Made by a program: the position numbers and the translations under genes. Under the pieces are notes generated by a model. The model searched no databases. It saw only the letters and a list, made by a program, of their open reading frames with translations, and was not told where the DNA came from. Below, piece after piece: positions 8,562-53,540 of a DNA stretch of 64,000 nucleotides. The first letter of the stretch is position 1. Each line of letters begins with the position of its first letter. The stretch lies in the NCBI RefSeq assembly GCF_056712565.1, contig NZ_CM160072.1; one strand, 5' to 3'.

Positions 8562-8924
8562 GGGGCTGATTCTGGATTCGACGGGATTTGCGAAACCCAA
8601 GGTGCATGCCGAGGGGCGGTTGGCCTCGTAAAAAGCCGCAAAAAATAGTCGCAAACGACGAAAACTACGCTTTAGCAGCTTAATAACCTGCTTAGAGCCC
8701 TCTCTCCCTAGCCTCCGCTCTTAGGACGGGGATCAAGAGAGGTCAAACCCAAAAGAGATCGCGTGGAAGCCCTGCCTGGGGTTGAAGCGTTAAAACTTAA
8801 TCAGGCTAGTTTGTTAGTGGCGTGTCCGTCCGCAGCTGGCAAGCGAATGTAAAGACTGACTAAGCATGTAGTACCGAGGATGTAGGAATTTCGGACGCGG
8901 GTTCAACTCCCGCCAGCTCCACCA
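8562..8924 (+). ncRNA. ssrA: tmRNA (SsrA, 10Sa RNA)
   Basis: Begins GGGGCTGATTCTGGATTCGACGGGATTTGCGAAACCCAAGGTGCATGCC, contains tag-peptide coding region, ends ...GGTTCAACTCCCGCCAGCTCCACCA; 363 nt. Confidence 0.95.
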
Positions 8925-9085
8925 ATCATGATTGGACGGTGTAAGGACAACACCAACAAAAACAGGAAGTTAGAAGTCTCAGCAGGACACCGACCAGACG
9001 GTGAGGAGACATAAAAGGATACGCAAAGGAGCCGCGGCTCCGAAGTGAAATGAAAGCCCGCTGATGCGGGCTTTTTTGCTTCTTC
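8898..9085 (+). repeat. attL: ssrA 3' core (cgggttcaactcccgccagc) plus ~170 bp similar to the attR copy
   Basis: Near-identical to 53357..53540 by direct comparison, including the terminator hairpin aaagcccgctgatgcgggctttttt. Confidence 0.7.
9055..9077 (+). terminator. Rho-independent terminator downstream of ssrA
   Basis: agcccgctgatgcgggct hairpin followed by TTTTTT. Confidence 0.6.
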
Positions 9086-9452
9086 TCTTTAGCCTGATTC
9101 GACACTCTCAATGCGGCCATAAACAACAACCCACTTTTCTTATACCGTAGCCTGTCCCCCTCTTCCTGCTTTCTAACCATAACAGATGTGAGCGTTTGCT
9201 ATGAGCGATATATAGTCATTCGTACCCTCCGATACTAATCATCACAGAAATTAATATATTCATTCCTTACTGAAAAGCTATGAAGTAGATATATAGGATT
9301 GGGGCGCGTATGGCACTGGACAGTTATGCATCTCCGAATATTATTCCGGAGCTAAGACAACTAGACTGGCCCCCTGAATCTCCAGACAACCAATATCACT
9401 TATTTAAGTGATAGTCTTAATACTAGTTTTTAGACTAGTCATTGGAGAGCAG

Positions 9453-9818
9453 ATGATTGATGTCTTAGGACCGGAGAAACGCAGACGGCGTACCACACAG
9501 GAAAAGATCGCAATTGTTCAGCAGAGCTTTGAACCAGGGATGACGGTCTCCCTCGTTGCCCGGCAACATGGTGTAGCAGCCAGCCAGTTATTTCTCTGGC
9601 GTAAGCAATACCAGGAAGGAAGTCTTACTGCTGTCGCCGCCGGAGAACAGGTTGTTCCTGCCTCTGAACTTGCTGCCGCCATGAAGCAGATTAAAGAACT
9701 CCAGCGCCTGCTCGGCAAGAAAACGATGGAAAATGAACTCCTCAAAGAAGCCGTTGAATATGGACGGGCAAAAAAGTGGATAGCGCACGCGCCCTTATTG
9801 CCCGGGGATGGGGAGTAA
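9453..9818 (+). CDS. insC: IS2 transposase OrfA (InsC)
   Basis: [56 protein letters not shown]... Confidence 0.85.
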
Positions 9819-10681
9819 GCTTAGTCAGCCGTTGTCTCCGGGTGTCGCGTGCGCAGTTGCACGTCATTCTCAGACGAACCGATGACTGGATGGATGGCCG
9901 CCGCAGTCGTCACACTGATGATACGGATGTGCTTCTCCGTATACACCATGTTATCGGAGAGCTGCCCACGTATGGTTATCGTCGGGTATGGGCGCTGCTT
10001 CGCAGACAGGCAGAACTTGATGGTATGCCTGCGATCAATGCCAAACGTGTTTACCGGATCATGCGCCAGAATGCGCTGTTGCTTGAGCGAAAACCTGCTG
10101 TACCGCCATCGAAACGGGCACATACAGGCAGAGTGGCTGTGAAAGAAAGTAATCAGCGATGGTGCTCTGACGGGTTCGAGTTCCGCTGTGATAACGGAGA
10201 AAAACTGCGAGTCACGTTCGCGCTGGACTGCTGTGACCGTGAGGCACTGCACTGGGCGGTCACTACGGGCGGCTTCAACAGTGAAACAGTACAGGACGTC
10301 ATGCTGGGAGCGGTGGAACGCCGCTTCGGCAACGAGCTTCCGGCGTCTCCAGTAGAGTGGCTGACGGATAATGGTTCATGCTACCGGGCTAATGAAACAC
10401 GGCAGTTTGCCCGGATGTTGGGGCTTGAACCGAAGAGCACGGCGGTGCGGAGTCCGGAGAGTAACGGCATAGCAGAGAGCTTCGTGAAAACGATAAAGCG
10501 TGACTACATCAGTGTCATGCCCAAACCAGACGGGTTAACGGCAGCAAAGAACCTTGCAGAGGCGTTCGAGCATTATAACGAATGGCATCCGCATAGTGCA
10601 CTGGGTTATCGCTCGCCACGGGAATATCTACGGCAGCAAGCCAGTAATGGGTTAAGTGATAACAGGTGTCTGGAAATATAG
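9776..10681 (+). CDS. insD: IS2 transposase OrfB (InsD), DDE integrase-like catalytic domain
   Basis: 301 aa overlapping orfA in another frame (frameshift fusion arrangement typical of IS3 family). Confidence 0.9.
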
Positions 10682-10839: not shown

Positions 10840-11628
10840 ATGACAAATCTACAACTGGAAGAAAGATTTAGGGCGCTTGAGAAAGATTACGATGCGCTCA
10901 TTTCCACAAAATATACTGCGCAGAACGTTCTCACTCACACTATGGAAACCTATGTTGATTCTGGTAAATATAAAAACTGGATCGCCAGAGTGAAAAAGTT
11001 AATAGAGGACAGCTACGGAAAAGAGTCTGATTATTACAATGACTTCAATACTGTAAACAGCAGGTGGTCTTCTAATTACAATACACTGATCAAAAGTTAT
11101 AAACCGTTGTTTGATGCGGCGAGAGATGATCTTGCGCACTCTGCTGTCAGTACTAATACTCCTCAAGAAGGTTCGCCGCTGAGCCTCGTACTTAATATTC
11201 TTAACAGGTTTCCGACCTTTGTTCGCCAGTTAAAGAGGCGGTACAACGGCCGTGCGCCGCTTGAAGTTAATGATGAGTATGACGTACAGGATTTGATTTA
11301 TGCACTGCTGACGCTTCATTTTAATGATATTAGGGCGGAAGAGTATACCCCCAGCTTTGCGGGCGCGGCCTCAAGACAGGACTTTCTTTTGAAAAAAGAG
11401 AAAATTGTGATAGAGGTGAAGAAAACCCGTGAATCTCTGGGAGCGGGTAAAGTTGGTGGAGAGTTGCTTATTGATATGGCGCGCTACCGCGCTCACCAAG
11501 ACTGCGATACGTTGATCTTGTTTGTATATGACCCGGATTGCTACATAAATAATCCTTTGGGCGTGAAAACCGATCTGGAATCTAAAGACGCGGAAGGAAA
11601 AGTGAAGGTTGTTATTGCGCAGTTCTGA
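10840..11628 (+). CDS. Hypothetical protein, helical N-terminus and possible PD-(D/E)xK nuclease-like C-terminus; defence candidate
   Basis: 262-aa ORF; C-terminal D...(D/E)xK-like motifs (DVQDLIYALL ... KEKIVIEVKKTRE); no family recognised; lies in the accessory islet. Confidence 0.5.
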   Translation: MTNLQLEERFRALEKDYDALISTKYTAQNVLTHTMETYVDSGKYKNWIARVKKLIEDSYGKESDYYNDFNTVNSRWSSNYNTLIKSYKPLFDAARDDLAHSAVSTNTPQEGSPLSLVLNILNRFPTFVRQLKRRYNGRAPLEVNDEYDVQDLIYALLTLHFNDIRAEEYTPSFAGAASRQDFLLKKEKIVIEVKKTRESLGAGKVGGELLIDMARYRAHQDCDTLILFVYDPDCYINNPLGVKTDLESKDAEGKVKVVIAQF

Positions 11629-12219: not shown

Positions 12220-13044
<825 letters not shown>

Positions 13045-13620: not shown

Positions 13621-14044
13621 GCTAAAACTTTCGTTCAGGAAACTCTGAATGATACCTGAGAGTCTACTGAAGAGTTGTTTGTTCACTAGTTAGCACGTAG
13701 GAAATCATTCAATACTCGCACTATCGGAAGTTCACCAGCCAGTCGTAGCACGTCCTTGCAAACGACGTGCCTACGGTTTCAATCACCTCTCACCATCAAT
13801 TCTATCAATAATAATTAAACAGCGCCTAGACAAAATAAATAACAACAAGTCAACAACCTCGACAGGATGCCGATGGGATGATGAAGAGATAAGAAAGAAT
13901 AACCAGTAAAGCCCTAAAACGTCAGCGTTCAGACGCGTTTTTTACTTAATCGGTAACAAATACGTTGTATCATAGCAAAATAAAATGATTGTTCTAAATC
14001 AGATTAACTCCTCACTTTTGTACAATGTCGCTTACAGGTATACC

Positions 14045-15934
14045 ATGAAATCCGAGACGCTAACTGTCCAACAACTTTTTCAAGACCGCCGACAATACTG
14101 TGTTCCATTCTATCAACGTGCCTATGTATGGACTCAGCAAGACCAGTGGTCAGCTCTACTGGAGGATATCCTAGAGAAAGTACAATCCCGGCTCTCGGGT
14201 ACAAAACCAACTCCCCATTTCCTTGGTGCGGTTGTACTGGAACCTCAATCAAAAAAAGGATTATTAGGTGTAGATTCCATACATATTATTGATGGTCAGC
14301 AACGATTGACCACTCTTCAATATGTTCTGGCATCCATCCGATTAGCATTACGTGCTACGGATCTTTCCAGCTTAGAGGCTCTCATTTCGCCTTGCCTGAA
14401 AAACTCAAACGAAGACACAATGCGAAATAAAGAAGTAGAACGCTTCAAACTGTGGCCAACTTTTCGGGATCAAACTCATTTTATTCAAAGTTTTAATGTT
14501 GAAAATATTGACGATCTCCGGGACGTATTCTCTGATAGTTTCACGCAGCATGGTACGTTGCGTAAGCATTTTAATCACCCGCCATCACTAGAAGCATTAT
14601 GTTTTTTTACTGAAGCCTTTATAAAATGGATTAAAATAGAAAACCACTCACCACAAGAAAATGCTGTAGCTCTAATTGAGGCTGTCTTAACAGATCTGAA
14701 ACTGGTAAGCATATTTCTCGAAGCTGAAGATGATGCCCAAATAATTTTTGAAACATTAAATGGGCGAGGGGCGGAACTTCATGCTACGGATCTTATTCGC
14801 AACTATATCTTTATGTGCGCTGAGCATGAAAATATTAATGCTATTGAATTATATGAAAATGAGTGGAAGAGCTTTGAAGATAAATACTGGTCGGAAAAAC
14901 AACGCCGTGGACGTATTAATAAACCACGCATGGAGTGGCTAGTACATGCGACATTGCAATCAGAAAGGCAACGTGAAATTGATCTGTCTCGCCTTTACAA
15001 TGAGTATCGTGATTATGTAAGTAAGGACTTGTCTTCACAACGAGCAGATCTGCAAGTAAAGCGCCTCAAACAATATGCATCACAATATAAAGAATTGGTT
15101 GATGGTTTTGGCACAACCCCCATCTCACACTTTGGATATCGCATCGCAGACTATGATGTGACGACACTTTATCCGCTTGCTTTGTTCATTTCGATAGCTA
15201 ACATCGCTGATGATGAGAAAGCAGCCATGTATAATGATCTTGTCTCCTACGTAGTACGAAGAGCCGTATGTGGCCTGACGCCAAAGAATTACAACAATGT
15301 ATTTATGAATGTATTGCGGCACTTGGCTAAAACGGAAATTTCCAGTGTTGAGTTACGTAATATCCTCAATAACTTAAATGGCGAAGCCTCACGTTGGCCT
15401 GGTGACTCAGAATTTCTCAACGCTTGCATCAATGCTCCACTTTATCCTGGCAGGCTCGACGCACCGAAAATGCGCTCAATGTTAACGGAACTTGAAAGAG
15501 AACTTTGTCGCCAAGTAAAGACAGAAAAGCCTGATGTTCCAAATCTTTCTAATCTCGATATCGATCATCTTATGCCTCAAAGTTGGTATTCCTGTTGGCC
15601 TCTCGAAAATGGTCGTATGGTGACAAATTCAGATGCTACGGTATTGAACCAAATTGTTCTGTCTGGAACCGATCTTACCCCTGAACAGCTACTGGTAAGG
15701 AAACGGCAACAAGCGATATCTACTTTGGGAAATCTAACTTTGCTTAACCTTAGCGTAAACCGTTCTGTTCAGAATGCTGTATTTCTGAAAAAACGTGATG
15801 CTCTCATCGTCCACACCAATCTACGACTGAACATTCCACTTATAGTTAAGGATAAATGGGATGAGGATGAAATCCTGGAGCGGGGTAAAAAGTTGGGGGA
15901 AATTGCATTGAAAGTATGGCCAAAACACGATTAA
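14045..15934 (+). CDS. Type IV restriction endonuclease, GmrSD-like (N-terminal DUF262/ParB-like, C-terminal DUF1524/HNH-like)
   Basis: N-terminal DGQQRLTTL motif; C-terminal DIDHLMPQSW...N motif; start taken at MKSETLTVQQLF; AT-rich gene. Confidence 0.75.
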   Translation: MKSETLTVQQLFQDRRQYCVPFYQRAYVWTQQDQWSALLEDILEKVQSRLSGTKPTPHFLGAVVLEPQSKKGLLGVDSIHIIDGQQRLTTLQYVLASIRLALRATDLSSLEALISPCLKNSNEDTMRNKEVERFKLWPTFRDQTHFIQSFNVENIDDLRDVFSDSFTQHGTLRKHFNHPPSLEALCFFTEAFIKWIKIENHSPQENAVALIEAVLTDLKLVSIFLEAEDDAQIIFETLNGRGAELHATDLIRNYIFMCAEHENINAIELYENEWKSFEDKYWSEKQRRGRINKPRMEWLVHATLQSERQREIDLSRLYNEYRDYVSKDLSSQRADLQVKRLKQYASQYKELVDGFGTTPISHFGYRIADYDVTTLYPLALFISIANIADDEKAAMYNDLVSYVVRRAVCGLTPKNYNNVFMNVLRHLAKTEISSVELRNILNNLNGEASRWPGDSEFLNACINAPLYPGRLDAPKMRSMLTELERELCRQVKTEKPDVPNLSNLDIDHLMPQSWYSCWPLENGRMVTNSDATVLNQIVLSGTDLTPEQLLVRKRQQAISTLGNLTLLNLSVNRSVQNAVFLKKRDALIVHTNLRLNIPLIVKDKWDEDEILERGKKLGEIALKVWPKHD

Positions 15935-48982: not shown

Positions 48983-49090
48983 AAATCAGCACGTACGAAT
49001 TCAAACTCTGCCATAAAAGAACATATAAGTAATTTATTAACATATAGATATAGGTTATATTACAAATTGAAAAATTATTGGAGAGCAACA

Positions 49091-49957
49091 ATGAATCAAA
49101 ATCCATTCTCATTCTATGACTTTCTTGGATATTTAATACCAGGTGGTTTTTTTATCCTATTAATGTATTTCTGTGGTTTGACATTCGATCTAGATATTGT
49201 TATTGACTTAAGTGAATTGCTCAGAGGTCAAAGTCAAATCTTTGGCATTTTGAACTACGCTTCAATAGTTATTATATCTTATATAGCTGGACATTTTATT
49301 TCTATCACGTCAGCATTTTTTATCGAAAAATACATGAATAAAGAATTAGGATATCCTTCCAAATATCTATTTAAAAAATTGATAGATACCTCAGAAAGCA
49401 TTTGTAGCCCATCATGCGATGAGAGAAGCGCTGATAAAAAAACAAAAATAAAGAATCGCATAATCAAATGCGTATTATGTCCAATAATACTATGGGATTT
49501 TATAACACAAAAACTATGTTATTCTCAATCTCTACCATTTCATTTAGCTAATACAACATGGTTAATGATCAAAGAAGGTTATGAGAAAAAGTTCATAACA
49601 AATCGCCAATTATTACAAGATAAAAACGGACTTGATGATGATCTCTTCAGATTGGCATATCATTATGTTTATGAGTTTTCAAAACAACATCAAACAAAAA
49701 TTCAAAACTATGTTGCATTATATGGTTTTTGCAGAAACATATGTTTAATCTTTATAATTTCATTTTGGGTATCAGTTCCAACCTTTATTTATCGATTATG
49801 TACTCATAGTGATTATCTTTATAGTTTACTTTCAATAATGCTTAGCTTTTTCTTCGTCTATGTTTTCTATGTTGGTTTTGTTAAATTTTATAGAAGATAT
49901 ACTTTAGAAGTATTAATGGCATTTGCTGTACTTCAAAGTAACGACACTATTCGTTAA
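49091..49957 (+). CDS. AT-rich multi-TM membrane protein of unknown function, next to xis; candidate exclusion/abortive-infection gene
   Basis: 288 aa from MNQNPFSFYD with GGAGAG RBS; hydrophobic helices at both ends; markedly AT-rich versus flanks. Confidence 0.5.
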   Translation: MNQNPFSFYDFLGYLIPGGFFILLMYFCGLTFDLDIVIDLSELLRGQSQIFGILNYASIVIISYIAGHFISITSAFFIEKYMNKELGYPSKYLFKKLIDTSESICSPSCDERSADKKTKIKNRIIKCVLCPIILWDFITQKLCYSQSLPFHLANTTWLMIKEGYEKKFITNRQLLQDKNGLDDDLFRLAYHYVYEFSKQHQTKIQNYVALYGFCRNICLIFIISFWVSVPTFIYRLCTHSDYLYSLLSIMLSFFFVYVFYVGFVKFYRRYTLEVLMAFAVLQSNDTIR

Positions 49958-49998: not shown

Positions 49999-50205
49999 AT
50001 GCTGAACCTCGATTGTGTTCCTATCTCAACTTATTGCAAAGAAACTGGCGAAACTCCTGAAGCAATAAACAAACGTGTACAGCGCGGTGTTTGGCGTGAA
50101 GGTGTTCAGGTTTTAAAGGTTGAAGGCGTTAAGGAGAGGTGGATTGATCTTAGTGAGGTTGCAAAATGGGCCAGACAAAACTGCTCAAACTACCGCGCGG
50201 CGTAA
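49999..50205 (+). CDS. Excisionase (Xis-like DNA-binding protein)
   Basis: Small basic protein immediately upstream of and overlapping the integrase; start at MLNLDC with GGAG RBS. Confidence 0.5.
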   Translation: MLNLDCVPISTYCKETGETPEAINKRVQRGVWREGVQVLKVEGVKERWIDLSEVAKWARQNCSNYRAA

Positions 50206-51338
50206 CAATCAGGAAACACCACCAGGGAGAAACGATCAATATAACTTTCACCTACAAAGGAGTTAGATGTCGTGAGCCGCTTTCCAATCTGGAAGTAACA
50301 CCAAAGAACATTAAATACGCCGAGCGTACACTCGGCGAAATCCATAATAAGATCGAAAGGGGAACATTCATTTATGCAGAATATTTTCCCCGTTCTGCTC
50401 GTTTGAAAATTTTTGGTAATGCTGCTGCAAGCAAAACGGTAAAGATGTACCTGGACGAATATCTTGAAATCTGCGAAACAAGAAAACTTTCACCCTCTAC
50501 GATTGGTGGCTATAAAAAATGCCGTAGTGCGTTAGCCTCACTTCACATTTGCCCTGCAAGTGAATTAACACCAGCAACCCTGAAAGCGTGGATTCAAAGC
50601 CAGAAAACAACCTTAAAAACCATTCGCAACCAGTTATCTTTCCTACGGTCAGCACTTGATGAAGCCGTGACCGATGGGGTACTTCAAATTAACCCCGTAT
50701 CGTTAGTAACAGCTTCGCGCTACCAAAGTGATAAGTCAGAAGCAGAAAGCAGCTATGTGGTTGATCCGCTATCACCAGCAGAAGTTGATGCATTACTAGC
50801 AGCAGCCGGAAACAAACAATGGGAAAATCTGTTCCGGTTCGCCATACATACAGGCCTGCGTAGTTCTGAATTATGTGCCCTACGATGGCATGATATCGAC
50901 TTTGTTGGAAAAACAGCCCATGTTCAGAGCGCAAGTGTTGTCGGAGTTATCAAAGGAACAAAGACAAAAGCCGGTACCCGTAAAGTTGAACTGACTGAAG
51001 AAGCAATGTTGGCGTTGATAAACCAGAAGCCATTTACATTCATGAAGGATGCTACTGTCTTTGAAGATCCAAAGACCAATAAACCCTGGGCAAGTGCTGA
51101 TGCAATTAGGAAAAAAGCATGGGTGCCAACATTGCGAAAAGCAGGTATTCGTTACAGAAACCCATATCAAACCAGGCATACATTCGCCACCAGCCATATC
51201 AGCCGGGGAGCAAACCTGTTTTGGCTTGCGGCTCAAATGGGCCATAAAGGGCCTGAAATGTTATTCAGGCACTATGGACAATACTTGAAAGAGTATGATG
51301 GGAGGGCAAGTATCAAGGATAAAAAGGCTTTATTTTAA
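50166..51338 (+). CDS. Tyrosine-type phage integrase
   Basis: 390 aa; C-terminal R...HTFATSH...GHKGPEMLFRHYGQY gives the R-H-R-Y catalytic signature. Confidence 0.85.
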   Translation: MGQTKLLKLPRGVTIRKHHQGETINITFTYKGVRCREPLSNLEVTPKNIKYAERTLGEIHNKIERGTFIYAEYFPRSARLKIFGNAAASKTVKMYLDEYLEICETRKLSPSTIGGYKKCRSALASLHICPASELTPATLKAWIQSQKTTLKTIRNQLSFLRSALDEAVTDGVLQINPVSLVTASRYQSDKSEAESSYVVDPLSPAEVDALLAAAGNKQWENLFRFAIHTGLRSSELCALRWHDIDFVGKTAHVQSASVVGVIKGTKTKAGTRKVELTEEAMLALINQKPFTFMKDATVFEDPKTNKPWASADAIRKKAWVPTLRKAGIRYRNPYQTRHTFATSHISRGANLFWLAAQMGHKGPEMLFRHYGQYLKEYDGRASIKDKKALF

Positions 51339-51947
51339 GTCATTATGCCAATCGTCTACTGTTTGAAACCAAATTTTTAACCTTTGCATAAAGGTACGAT
51401 CCTTTTTGGGAGGGTGGTACCTTTGAAAAGAAGTATGTAACGCTTCGATAACTCCCATACAAGCATCAATTACTTCTTGTGCTTTAACCGGGCGATCGGC
51501 ATCTGAAAGCTTGTGAGCGACCTCACAATCCAGAGTTGCTTTCTCTAGTACAGATGAGAACACCTCGTCAGGTATATACAGTCCTCTGCTTTCCAAAATG
51601 CAAATCAGTTTGGAAACTTGTTGAGCTTTAGCCAAGATAGTTAACAAGTATGAAACAGAAGCCTTTGTTCTATCCTTTTGCAACCTTAACAATCGATGCT
51701 TTGATGCTCTAATTTTAGGTTGAGTTGTCTGACTGAGCCAATAGTTAGAAGAAATATCAGAAATTTCAATAACTAACTTTGAAATAGCATCAATAATTGA
51801 TTTCGATTCAGAACGTGTCGCCAGTTTTACAGAATTATTGTACGCAACTCGCCATCCAATGAAAACTAAGCAGACGCTAACTACTGTGATACACCACGAA
51901 TACTGTCCTATTTGTGCTACTAATGACATTGGTTCCGTACTGATCAA
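51330..51947 (-). CDS. Single-TM hypothetical protein; third gene of candidate defence operon
   Basis: 205 aa with N-terminal TM helix (YSWCITVVSVCLVFIGW); 10 bp downstream of the STAS-like gene. Confidence 0.5.
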   Translation of the reverse strand: MISTEPMSLVAQIGQYSWCITVVSVCLVFIGWRVAYNNSVKLATRSESKSIIDAISKLVIEISDISSNYWLSQTTQPKIRASKHRLLRLQKDRTKASVSYLLTILAKAQQVSKLICILESRGLYIPDEVFSSVLEKATLDCEVAHKLSDADRPVKAQEVIDACMGVIEALHTSFQRYHPPKKDRTFMQRLKIWFQTVDDWHNDLK

Positions 51948-51957
51948 CTATCGCCTC

Positions 51958-52284
51958 TTATACTCTTTCTGGTTGTGCTAAATCAATAAATTTATCAATC
52001 TGTTCTTTGTAGAACGGAACATCACTTTTTATAATCAAACGTGCTTTAACGTTGGCTTTAGGTATCCCTTCCTTACGGATGAGACCTCCAAACGCCTCTT
52101 CTAAGAAAGAGGAACCAACACCCAGTGCTATACCGCGAAAATCAACCACAATCTCCTGTTCAGTACCCTTCAGCGCAGGCACCAAAAACTCTCTACGAAA
52201 TCTTTCCGCACTGTGTGGGCTATCCGTTGTGTAACGTCCGAAAGGTGTTCTGGAGAACTCCTTCGCTATGACGATATTTCTCAT
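51958..52284 (-). CDS. STAS-like (DUF4325-like) protein; second gene of candidate defence operon
   Basis: 108 aa with VVDFRGIALGVGSSFLEEAFGGL, matching the DUF4325 core motif as I recall it. Confidence 0.5.
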   Translation of the reverse strand: MRNIVIAKEFSRTPFGRYTTDSPHSAERFRREFLVPALKGTEQEIVVDFRGIALGVGSSFLEEAFGGLIRKEGIPKANVKARLIIKSDVPFYKEQIDKFIDLAQPERV

Positions 52285-52288
52285 AAAA

Positions 52289-53200
52289 TCATCTCCTGGG
52301 AACCAGCGACCATTGTAGTAAAGTACCCGGTATGTACTCAGCTAGCTTCTCACATCGAGGACTACTGTCATTAGAATTATAGCTATAACGAGCCCTTCCT
52401 ATTAGTATCAGAAGTGTCTCATTATCCTCACAACCTGCCCCAATAGGTCTCTTGATATCTTCAGAGCCATTTCCCCGTCCGGAACCAACAAAGCGGGATT
52501 CCCCTACTAACATAGCTCTTTCCACAGAAGATACTTCGTTTTGAATGCTATGACCATCACCATTAGGCACGAAACTTCTATAAATCCCCAATCCAAGGTC
52601 ACAAACGATAAAAACGACTTTATTTTCATCACGATTGAACCAAGCGCACTGCCACCATCGTTTACCTTTGAGAAGCTGAATATCTGACTCGAACCCCTCA
52701 TCTTCATACGCATGATGAGAAACATTGAGCAAAGCTTCACTAATCGCTGTCAGCAGTAAGCCTAACTGTTCATTATTAAGCAGAGCACTTTTCTGCAGCA
52801 TGAGTACTGTTTCAACAATATGCTCGTAAGGTTCGACAGCTGACTGAAAGTATCGTTCCTCCCTCGTAAGTGCATTCAGTTTCTCTTCTGTGCCAGCAAG
52901 CAAAGCACGAGCAAGTCCAGTACCAACGATCCATCTATGCCCAGATGGGTTATCATCCTTTTTAGGCCATTTAAAACGTATAAAATTAGGGTCCCGGGTT
53001 AAAAATTGAGCTCTATTTACTATGGCAAAGAACAGTACCGATGCCGCAGCTGAGGCAAATTTTACCTTGGACAAATCAACTATAACTCGACCTTTATTTT
53101 TTACTCCAATCGATTCAATCGAGTTGATGAAGTTCAATGTCCCAGCCCTAGAATCATCTGAGTAAATGCAAAATTTGCTTGGGGGTACCAGTATGGTCAT
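52289..53200 (-). CDS. GHKL-type ATPase (histidine kinase/anti-sigma kinase-like fold); first gene of candidate defence operon
   Basis: N-box EALLNVSHHAY, G1 box CDLGLG, G2-like GSGRGNG; 303 aa; AT-rich. Confidence 0.6.
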   Translation of the reverse strand: MTILVPPSKFCIYSDDSRAGTLNFINSIESIGVKNKGRVIVDLSKVKFASAAASVLFFAIVNRAQFLTRDPNFIRFKWPKKDDNPSGHRWIVGTGLARALLAGTEEKLNALTREERYFQSAVEPYEHIVETVLMLQKSALLNNEQLGLLLTAISEALLNVSHHAYEDEGFESDIQLLKGKRWWQCAWFNRDENKVVFIVCDLGLGIYRSFVPNGDGHSIQNEVSSVERAMLVGESRFVGSGRGNGSEDIKRPIGAGCEDNETLLILIGRARYSYNSNDSSPRCEKLAEYIPGTLLQWSLVPRR

Positions 53201-53356
53201 AGCGATGTCATTCTTATACGATGGATTTATAGATTATCTACTATTCATAGTTGGTTATGAAGACTGGGATATAACAGTAAAAGATACGTGTAAGATCCGC
53301 AAGATAGTTAATGTCGAAAAAATCATTAATTACATCAAGTTAGTGATATTTGGACT

Positions 53357-53540
53357 CGGGTTCAACTCCCGCCAGCCAATCATGATTGGACGGTGTAAGG
53401 ACTACACCAACAAAAACAGGAAGTTATAAGTCTCAGCAGGACACCGACCAGACGGTGAGGAGACAAAAAAGGATACGCAACGGAGTCGCGACTCCCTATG
53501 ACATTAAAGCCCGCTGATGCGGGCTTTTTTATTGGTCCTG
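53357..53540 (+). repeat. attR: second copy of the ssrA 3' core plus ~170 bp flanking sequence, with terminator
   Basis: cgggttcaactcccgccagc followed by sequence ~90% identical to 8918-9085 (5-bp tccac indel) and hairpin aaagcccgctgatgcgggctttttt. Confidence 0.7.

Follow-up and report, generated by a model that had tools for sequence, protein, structure and literature searches.

What does a close-packed trio of genes do in the slot between the integrase and the attachment site of an E. coli prophage? In the window analysed here (the whole 64,000-nucleotide stretch from contig NZ_CM160072.1 of RefSeq assembly GCF_056712565.1), the original prediction had singled out three tightly spaced, co-directional genes at 51330-53200, designated A, B and C below, as a candidate undescribed defence operon. 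It read them as a GHKL ATPase of the RsbW/SpoIIAB type, a DUF4325 STAS protein and a protein with one N-terminal transmembrane (TM) segment, and took them for a partner-switching module reused against phage. The layout holds: the genes occupy the minus strand between the integrase and an ssrA-derived attR, with gaps of 4 nt between A and B and 10 nt between B and C, and the convergent integrase gene overlaps C by 9 nt (Table 1). The three are probably translationally coupled; PGAP calls a shorter C, of 199 residues, from an ATG at 51929. The AT-richness claimed for the operon stands against the prophage core and the host glaH-gabD region (41.1% GC versus 52.2% and 56.2%, respectively), but against the adjacent integrase (44.1%) it is slight. 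The sigma-70-like promoter upstream of A is a candidate only, because the number of such matches in the scan is not above the shuffled expectation.

Table 1. Features of the operon and its surroundings, in window coordinates
Feature	Position	Strand	Length	Description or basis
Gene A	52289..53200	-	303 aa	STAS-like domain and SpoIIAB/RsbW-type GHKL Ser kinase, VapK-like
A residues 1-121	52838..53200	-		N-terminal STAS-like alpha/beta domain
A residues 128-301	52298..52819	-		GHKL (Bergerat) kinase domain; invariant columns and fold matches
Gene B	51958..52284	-	108 aa	DUF4325 STAS-like protein, VapS-like, presumed kinase substrate
B Ser58-Ser59 codons	52108..52113	-		Candidate phospho-acceptor; motif G-S-S-F-L-E-E-x-F-G-G-L-x-R invariant
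Gene C	51330..51947	-	205 aa from TTG	Single-pass membrane protein, cytoplasmic four-helix bundle; orphan family, presumed effector
C TM segment, residues ~13-35	51843..51911	-		Hydropathy; sole hydrophobic segment
Prophage tyrosine integrase	50166..51338	+		ORF; annotated site-specific integrase
attR	53352..53495	+		Duplicated ssrA 3' end and downstream sequence; direct-repeat partner 8893-9041
attL repeat	8893..9041	+		At the 3' end of ssrA (tmRNA gene, 8562-8924)
Candidate sigma-70-like promoter, TTCATA-17-GATAAT	53233..53261	-		Consensus scan; in the attR-A spacer, 33 nt upstream of the A start codon

The larger, C-terminal domain of A carries an N-box with Glu155 and Asn159, a G1 box Asp201-x-Gly203-x-Gly205 and a G2-like motif Arg242-Gly243-x-Gly245, as well as a subfamily signature, Arg181-Trp-Trp-Gln..Trp187. 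All these positions are invariant in 45 homologues of A; the match to Pfam HATPase_c_2 is weak (i-E 1.2e-4), and the closest structural relatives are SpoIIAB and RsbW. Judged by its sequence, A is a STAS-plus-GHKL serine kinase of the SpoIIAB/RsbW/VapK type, with an intact active site. The original prediction had missed the STAS-like domain of A itself, which is also found in VapK and CapK. It lies at the very N-terminus of the protein, and A has no helix-turn-helix (HTH).

B matches Pfam PF14213 (DUF4325) at 9.3e-14 and consists of a STAS domain alone, with no DNA-binding domain. Profile searches thus recovered both predicted domains, the ATPase weakly and the STAS protein clearly. Ser58 and Ser59 of B are invariant in 39 homologues; in the alignment, Ser58 coincides with the functional Ser48 of VapS and Ser59 with the serine of RsbS, and the Ser-Ser pair occupies the position that is phosphorylated in these two proteins.

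The most informative comparison is with VapKSC, which is made of the kinase VapK, the STAS antitoxin VapS and the PIN toxin VapC (Chambers et al., EMBO J 2026, PMC13373217). Both systems are three-gene operons with the same order, encode no phosphatase and are found in mobile or defence contexts. Both begin with a STAS-GHKL kinase of about 300 residues belonging to PHROG 3364, followed by a DUF4325 STAS protein of about 110 residues with a conserved serine at the same aligned position. In pairwise BLASTP neither A with VapK nor B with VapS scores significantly, and a database-scale search with the A-family HMM misses VapK. Since direct similarity is weak, the case for homology is built on PHROG and Pfam profiles matched by both systems, on profile-profile alignment and on fold. 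PHROG 3364 is matched by A at 3.6e-65 and by VapK at 3.6e-38; hhalign aligns the A family with VapK over 236 columns (E 1.4e-4); VapS, like B, matches PF14213 (2.7e-17); and when the B-family profile is run against the whole PDB, the best match is VapS itself (9z7o_A, E 0.035). A is a remote homologue of VapK and B of VapS, within the CapK/VapK-CapS/VapS superfamily named in 2026.

CapK-CapS belongs to the same kinase-STAS superfamily, and there, too, a kinase with its own STAS domain phosphorylates a serine on a partner STAS protein. DNA-binding domains set CapK-CapS apart, however: an HTH at the N-terminus of CapK and a winged HTH at the C-terminus of CapS, both missing from A and B. CapK-CapS also lies upstream of the immune operon that it controls at the level of transcription (CBASS, Bub or Thoeris), whereas A and B are followed only by C and the convergent integrase.

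Phe54 of VapK is a reported ssDNA-contact residue, and Trp68, Lys237 and Lys239 of CapK take part in ssDNA sensing, the contacts of the two lysines being predicted (PMC13373217). Phe48 of A aligns with VapK Phe54, and the position is Phe or Tyr in 30 of the 45 homologues; here the A-VapK alignment was relied on alone, MAFFT placement of the N-terminal region of CapK being ambiguous. The basic hairpin at the two CapK lysines (KGKRR in CapK, IKKNE in VapK) aligns with NRDEN in A, and the A-family consensus is acidic, so that the signal may differ from ssDNA. Residues 94-116 of VapS form a C-terminal helix which reaches into the toxin active site and is required for neutralisation of VapC (PMC13373217). 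B has no equivalent: the B-VapS profile alignment ends at residue 104 of B (about native VapS residue 92), and B stops at 108, without the 24-residue tail. Any inhibition of C by B must therefore work differently.

The third protein differs, VapC being a PIN nuclease and C a membrane protein. The predicted single N-terminal TM segment is present. Upstream of it, homologues of C have on average 0.4 Lys and Arg residues, and downstream 4.3 (39 homologues), which by the positive-inside rule makes C a single-pass inner-membrane protein with its four-helix bundle on the cytoplasmic side; the bundle is thus able to meet A and B. A near-invariant juxtamembrane motif, Ala-Thr-Arg45-Ser-Glu47-Ser-Lys, directly follows the TM segment. 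The AF2 model of C is all-helical and confident (pLDDT 92); the four-helix bundle that it shows is a generic fold without informative relatives. C has no Pfam match even at E<=10 and no similarity to a known toxin or pore; profile search finds 48 homologous proteins, all 'hypothetical', with no Pfam match and no domain fusions. To call C a membrane-acting effector, as the original prediction did, was an overstatement, and we treat this role as presumed.

The trio is inherited as a unit. Related loci came from a peptide-pattern scan of genome contigs (9 species-representative loci, this small number reflecting narrow patterns), a viral scan (40 loci) and look-ups of exact proteins. The order A-B-C is constant in all 59 of them, with gaps of -11 to +27 nt; such constancy in independent loci argues that the trio is not a chance arrangement. 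The same order recurs in each of 11 distant relatives sampled (A-profile E 1e-60 to 1e-24), where the third gene is always of membrane type, and in none of the 70 related loci examined is a PIN gene in third position. A, B and C are always found together in the sampled loci, as expected of one co-inherited operon, and about 40 non-redundant trios went into paired alignments. The A-family profile collects 2311 clusters at 50% identity; megablast against 50,697 phage records gave no match. The related loci are mostly in prophages, and the type of integrase seen in the window follows C immediately in about 20 of 58 loci. Other slots are used as well, namely just downstream of CI or C repressors (L017, L060, L061 and L064) and between gpA and portal in P2-type prophages (L063); the slots of the family are either expressed in the lysogen or hotspots. 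The operon is one of the accessory modules that prophages carry and belongs to a large 'kinase-STAS-membrane protein' family, hitherto without a name, whose architecture is sister to that of VapKSC.

The claim that the operon was undescribed holds only in part: its kinase/STAS pair belongs to the 2026 superfamily, and the operon itself is the DefensePredictor candidate 'VPUS' (DeWeirdt et al., Science 2026, PMC13092281, Table S6). The VPUS span is the same 1871 bp, B (WP_001244589.1) and C (WP_000060412.1) are identical, and the two A proteins (WP_000154254.1 versus WP_000154253.1) are near-identical alleles. VPUS received a DefensePredictor log-odds of 5.75, and the paper gives no domain or mechanism analysis of it (PMC13092281). 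Cloned under its native promoter in a low-copy plasmid (MG1655 pCV1-VPUS), it failed to protect against any of 24 E. coli phages and was scored 'defensive = FALSE'; because no defence was seen, it has no DS name (PMC13092281). The cloned operon has so far shown no phage phenotype, whereas VapKSC does have one, protecting against Bas42 alone among the phages tried (PMC13373217). Bas42 is absent from the DefensePredictor supplementary files, so a single negative screen is weak evidence. None of the three proteins matches a PADLOC-DB v2.0.0 family at E<=1, and searches against NCBIfam and single-sequence searches of the PDB returned nothing useful for any of them.

The mechanism of the characterised relatives provides a plausible, though tentative, scheme for the operon, in which, by analogy with VapKSC, it would be a phosphorylation-gated switch of toxin-antitoxin or abortive-infection type whose effector acts at the membrane. 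The kinases VapK and CapK are activated by ligand, and the effector is held by the STAS substrate rather than by the kinase (PMC13373217). In a lysogen, unphosphorylated B would bind the cytoplasmic bundle of C and keep C inactive. A signal associated with infection would activate A, which would phosphorylate B at Ser58 or Ser59; phospho-B would let go of C, and free C would perturb the membrane, by oligomerisation or depolarisation, so that the cell is arrested or dies before the invading phage completes its cycle. As no phosphatase is encoded, the switch would be one-way, like a toxin-antitoxin trigger. The conservation of the trio, the homology to the VapK/VapS pair, the published VapKSC/CapKS mechanism, the topology of C, the location of the operon and its DefensePredictor score all point to this scheme; the negative 24-phage screen, the lack of toxin or pore likeness in C, the missing tail of B, the acidic hairpin of A and the remoteness of the homology speak against it.

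In an alternative reading, the roles are reversed. C could be the input, a membrane-anchored sensor or scaffold for envelope or DNA-injection events that controls A through B, and the output would consist in phosphorylating further proteins of the host or phage, or simply in blocking injection at the membrane (superinfection exclusion). That the juxtamembrane motif, rather than the TM segment, is the most conserved part of C fits this arrangement, as do the absence of a recognisable toxin domain and the acidic hairpin of A, which argues against CapK-type ssDNA input. We nevertheless consider it unlikely: the four-helix bundle faces the cytoplasm, unlike the periplasmic sensor domains that it resembles, no other output gene was found conserved beside the trio among the neighbours of related loci, and in both VapKSC and CapKS sensing falls to the kinase and control of the output to the STAS protein (PMC13373217).

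A second alternative, to which we give similarly little credence, is that the module is not directed against phage at all but serves as a toxin-antitoxin system for prophage addiction or stability, or else regulates the physiology of the prophage or its host, for instance how lysogeny is maintained, when induction occurs or how stress is answered. The negative screen, limited as noted above, agrees with this, and so does the occurrence of the family mostly within prophages, often in the repressor operon. CapKS is a transcription-control module that answers DNA damage, and the authors of the VapKSC study regard the boundary between stress response and defence as blurred (PMC13373217). Regulation of this kind would, however, sit poorly with a B that lacks a DNA-binding domain and an A that lacks an HTH. 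The slots occupied by the family are, moreover, typical of prophage defence and exclusion genes, such as rexAB after cI in lambda and old and tin in P2.

The original prediction had in mind partner switching, and this part of it survives incompletely: the broad notion of a kinase/STAS switch turned to phage conflict is supported, A and B being remote homologues of the experimentally demonstrated VapK/VapS pair, but no sigma factor or PP2C phosphatase is found in the operon, in its immediate neighbours or among the called neighbours of related loci. A shares with SpoIIAB and RsbW the character of an anti-sigma-type GHKL serine kinase with intact N-box and G-boxes; it differs from the SpoIIAB-SpoIIAA and RsbW-RsbV pairs in being fused to its own STAS domain, in having a presumed substrate of the DUF4325 branch and in residing in a prophage rather than in a developmental or stress regulon. 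Classical partner switching, in which A would sequester C until unphosphorylated B, otherwise inactivated by A through phosphorylation, competed for A and freed C, with a drop in ATP or sudden synthesis of B as the trigger instead of kinase activation, is how SpoIIAB and RsbW work, and ATP depletion during infection could plausibly provide that trigger, but we think it very improbable here, with neither a PP2C phosphatase to recycle B nor a sigma-like target encoded, and with the nearer relatives VapK and CapK being activated by ligand and leaving the effector to the STAS substrate.

Returning to the VapKSC-like scheme, a bolder version of it can be assembled from the family data, although as a whole it is rather unlikely. 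Instead of a rare offshoot of VapKSC, the trio, which spans more than 1000 sequence clusters and whose sampled loci are mostly in prophages, would be the prevailing architecture of the CapK/VapK superfamily; it would represent a new class of phosphorylation-gated, membrane-directed abortive infection or superinfection exclusion, with a kinase input other than ssDNA and with the orphan four-helix-bundle protein as a new kind of membrane effector. If the operon is functional, the kinase/STAS phospho-switch would emerge as a modular trigger in bacterial immunity, able to drive a membrane protein as well as the transcription factor CapS or the RNase toxin VapC; the wiring to a membrane protein appears very common, judging by the 2311 A-family clusters and the 11 of 11 distant relatives, which occupy classic accessory slots of prophages, the one right behind the repressor among them. 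C would then found an orphan family of membrane effectors, possibly answering to a new infection signal, and the case for testing again a candidate that scored negative in a large screen would be a concrete one.

A functional parallel is offered by lambda RexAB, a prophage-encoded module expressed in the lysogen, in which a cytoplasmic sensor acts with a presumed depolarising protein in the membrane. RexB differs from C in having four TM helices, and RexAB involves no kinase or STAS chemistry; to our knowledge, it has no sequence or fold relationship to the operon. The likeness lies in the design of a lysogen-expressed prophage module and in position, several relatives of the operon being found directly after the CI repressor.

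The copy of the ssrA 3' end in attR spans 53357-53376, within a direct repeat of about 145 bp, and in other E. coli genomes the sequence from window position 53341 onward adjoins ssrA directly, marking the empty site. Collinearity of the window with E. coli S88 and with ATCC 11775 was considered and rejected on the ssrA side in both cases: the window has an extra IS2 there, and S88 carries another element.

The three genes of the minus-strand operon between the prophage integrase and attR, designated A, B and C, are separated by gaps of only 4 nt (A-B) and 10 nt (B-C), with a 9-nt overlap between C and the integrase stop. The tight co-directional spacing, the integrase-to-att position and the elevated AT content noted in the original prediction all hold: GC content is 41.1% in the operon, as compared to 52.2% in the prophage core and 56.2% in the host genes to the right. 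The operon is real and its domains had been read correctly, with each observed sequence element recovered in our analysis.

Features of the prophage, its attachment sites and the A-B-C operon (positions in the window)
Feature	Position	Strand	Size or remarks
tmRNA gene (ssrA)	8562-8924
attL repeat	8893-9041		starts in ssrA 3' end
IS2-type insertion (IS3 family)	9408-10681	+	orfA 9408-9818, orfB 9776-10681
PD-(D/E)XK-domain protein	10840-11628	+	262 aa; ssrA-proximal end of prophage
LEM-3-like GIY-YIG protein	12220-13026	-	prophage left arm
DUF262 protein	13985-15934	+	649 aa; prophage left arm
AT-rich ORF	49067-49957	+	296 aa; 28.4% GC, several hydrophobic segments
Integrase	50166-51338	+	prophage right end; A-B-C read toward it
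Gene C	51947-51330	-	205 aa
Juxtamembrane motif of C	51800-51815		C residues 44-49
Gene B	52284-51958	-	108 aa
Gene A	53200-52289	-	303 aa
attR repeat	53352-53495

Protein A is a STAS-plus-RsbW-type kinase with an intact active site. This assignment relies on a weak match to Pfam HATPase_c_2 (i-E 1.2e-4), on the motifs that are invariant in 45 homologues, i.e., N-box E155 and N159, G1 residues D201, G203 and G205, and G2-like R242-G-N-G245, and on the AF2 model (pLDDT 86, pTM 0.88), where an N-terminal α/β domain (residues 1-121) is followed by a Bergerat-fold domain (128-301). The GHKL ATPase was thus rightly recognized at the outset, and the STAS half was overlooked. Protein B is a DUF4325 STAS-like protein, as had been proposed (9.3e-14), with the motif G-S58-S59-F-L-E-E-x-F-G-G-L-x-R essentially invariant in 39 homologues. 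B also matches the C-terminal 100 positions, and no others, of the 441-aa phage profile PHROG 5816 (1.4e-17), positions 191-284 of which are weakly matched by VapK, the kinase discussed below; the two matches suggest that single-chain GHKL-DUF4325 fusions may exist in phages.

Protein C has no match in Pfam, NCBIfam or PADLOC, and its 48 detectable homologues are all unannotated, none of them fused. Its confident AF2 model (pLDDT 92) consists of a long helix (residues 9-72) and a four-helix bundle. The anticipated single N-terminal transmembrane segment is indeed the sole hydrophobic segment (about 13-35), located within the long helix, and the positive-inside count (K+R of 0.4 before it and 4.3 after) indicates that the bundle is cytoplasmic. 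Conservation in C peaks at the juxtamembrane A-T-R-S-E-S-K, with invariant R45 and E47; the many Ser and Thr residues of this motif make C itself a possible kinase substrate.

The closest named systems are CapK-CapS and VapKSC. ssDNA activates CapK, an HTH-STAS-GHKL kinase, and CapS is a STAS-wHTH repressor freed on phosphorylation of a conserved serine; in the three-gene toxin-antitoxin defence system VapKSC, which blocks phage Bas42, VapK (STAS-GHKL) phosphorylates VapS (STAS with a C-terminal helix), freeing the PIN toxin VapC (Chambers et al., EMBO J 2026, PMC13373217). VapK, VapS and partial CapK sequences were taken from the AlphaFold files of that study. VapS, like B, is a DUF4325 protein (2.7e-17), and VapS 9z7o_A is the top match of the B-family profile among 177,635 PDB sequences (E 0.035), with B S58 aligned to the functional VapS S48; RsbS is also matched, aligned on S59. 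A and VapK share PHROG 3364 (3.6e-65 and, over VapK residues 26-289, 3.6e-38), and hhalign aligns the A family with VapK over 236 columns at E 1.4e-4. Pairwise BLASTP is insignificant both for A with VapK and for B with VapS, and VapK is not retrieved by the A profile at database scale. The relationship is remote, and several differences stand out. C, unlike VapC, is no PIN protein; the C-terminal helix that VapS requires to neutralise VapC is missing from B; and where CapK has a basic hairpin with K237/K239 (predicted ssDNA contacts; KK in VapK), A has an acidic hairpin, NRDEN. Of 45 A homologues, only 30 have F or Y at the aromatic position corresponding to VapK F54. On this comparison, the operon is VapKSC-like in outline without being a VapKSC member; with a switch of the CapK/VapK-CapS/VapS superfamily, it is not categorically new.

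A-B-C is a strictly co-inherited system, and a conserved, surprisingly widespread prophage module. Homologues of A occur in Enterobacterales, Vibrionaceae, Alteromonadales, Oceanospirillaceae and one betaproteobacterium. A, a DUF4325 gene and a C-like gene follow one another, spaced by -11 to +27 nt, in all 59 fetched loci (18 genome or assembly records, one distant relative and 40 IMG/VR prophage contigs). At E<=1e-3, an exhaustive A profile search yielded 2311 clusters (50% identity), of which 1203 remained at E<=1e-10; the clusters are nearly all full-length. All 11 distant members sampled (E-values 1e-60 to 1e-24) have the kinase, DUF4325 and small N-terminal-TM protein in this order, and none of the 11 has a PIN protein as the third gene; the C profile recognises most of these third genes (2e-35 to 5e-10), the rest being TM proteins of 117-163 aa, either divergent or shorter. 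The int-att position is found for the window operon and also in Salmonella, with the same integrase type. Among other relatives, the trio directly follows a CI-type repressor in matching orientation (loci L017, L060 and L061), lies directly behind a P2-type C repressor and ahead of int, on the repressor strand (L064), occupies the P2 gpA-portal slot (L063), follows tail genes in a Yersinia prophage, and in one case, in Photobacterium, forms an isolated chromosomal islet. The post-repressor slot is the position of lambda rexAB, and the arrangement in L060, L061, L017 and L064 suggests that the trio is expressed from the lysogenic maintenance transcript.

The exact operon, the same 1871 bp, is listed as VPUS in DefensePredictor Table S6 (WP_000060412.1, WP_001244589.1, WP_000154254.1; log-odds 5.75, category 'Structural defense homolog'), with defensive = FALSE and no DS name (Science 2026, PMC13092281). 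Strain MG1655 pCV1-VPUS was constructed, and candidates were screened under native promoters on a low-copy plasmid; the phage phenotype expected of the cloned operon was not seen against the 24 phages of this one published screen (PMC13092281). Its authors anticipate that testing additional phages or other hosts would validate many of the remaining candidates; Bas42 is absent from the supplementary files (PMC13092281). The claim of an undescribed operon therefore stands in part: the switch superfamily is named and the operon had been predicted and cloned, while the third component, a membrane protein, and the extent of the operon family carrying it appear to be undescribed in the literature searched.

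The most likely mechanism is inferred by analogy with VapKSC, including all contacts, phosphorylation, toxicity, the trigger and any phage phenotype. The cytoplasmic bundle of C would be kept inactive by unphosphorylated B until an infection-linked signal activates A; A would then phosphorylate B at Ser58 or Ser59, and C, set free, would damage or depolarise the membrane, aborting the infection. With no phosphatase gene in the operon, the trigger would be one-shot. Rival readings are less likely. C may act as a membrane sensor or scaffold instead of an effector. A non-defence addiction or regulatory role would agree with the negative screen, and the prophage-hotspot locations fit the abortive scheme. 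A third rival, a classical partner switch with A sequestering C, would depart from the VapKSC precedent.

The window comes from a B2/ST95-like E. coli chromosome, and S88 and ATCC 11775 share the operon at 100% identity. The prophage (~44.5 kb) is inserted in ssrA and flanked by an unusually long direct repeat of ~145 bp, comprising the ssrA 3' end and ~120 bp downstream (95% identity). Since 5 bp (TCCAC) of the tmRNA 3' end are missing from the attR copy, ssrA is completed only by the attL copy; in element-free genomes ssrA directly adjoins window position 53341 onward. The IS2-type insertion that separates the attL repeat from the PD-(D/E)XK gene is absent at the corresponding place in ATCC 11775, indicating that the window strain is neither S88 nor ATCC 11775. 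In S88 and ATCC 11775 the PD-(D/E)XK protein carries accession WP_000183405.1, listed as RED2, or DS-24, a validated defence system (DefensePredictor Table S6, PMC13092281). The GIY-YIG and DUF262 proteins, with a DinI-like pseudogene between their genes in reference annotations, are likely further defence cargo; the DUF262 protein resembles GmrSD-type, type IV restriction-like enzymes and carries an HNH-like 'DIDHLMPQSW' motif close to its C-terminus. The AT-rich ORF, annotated as hypothetical protein WP_001075212.1 and not found in the DefensePredictor tables, lies just upstream of an excisionase-like gene and the integrase, and is a second horizontally acquired moron of the integrase-proximal region.
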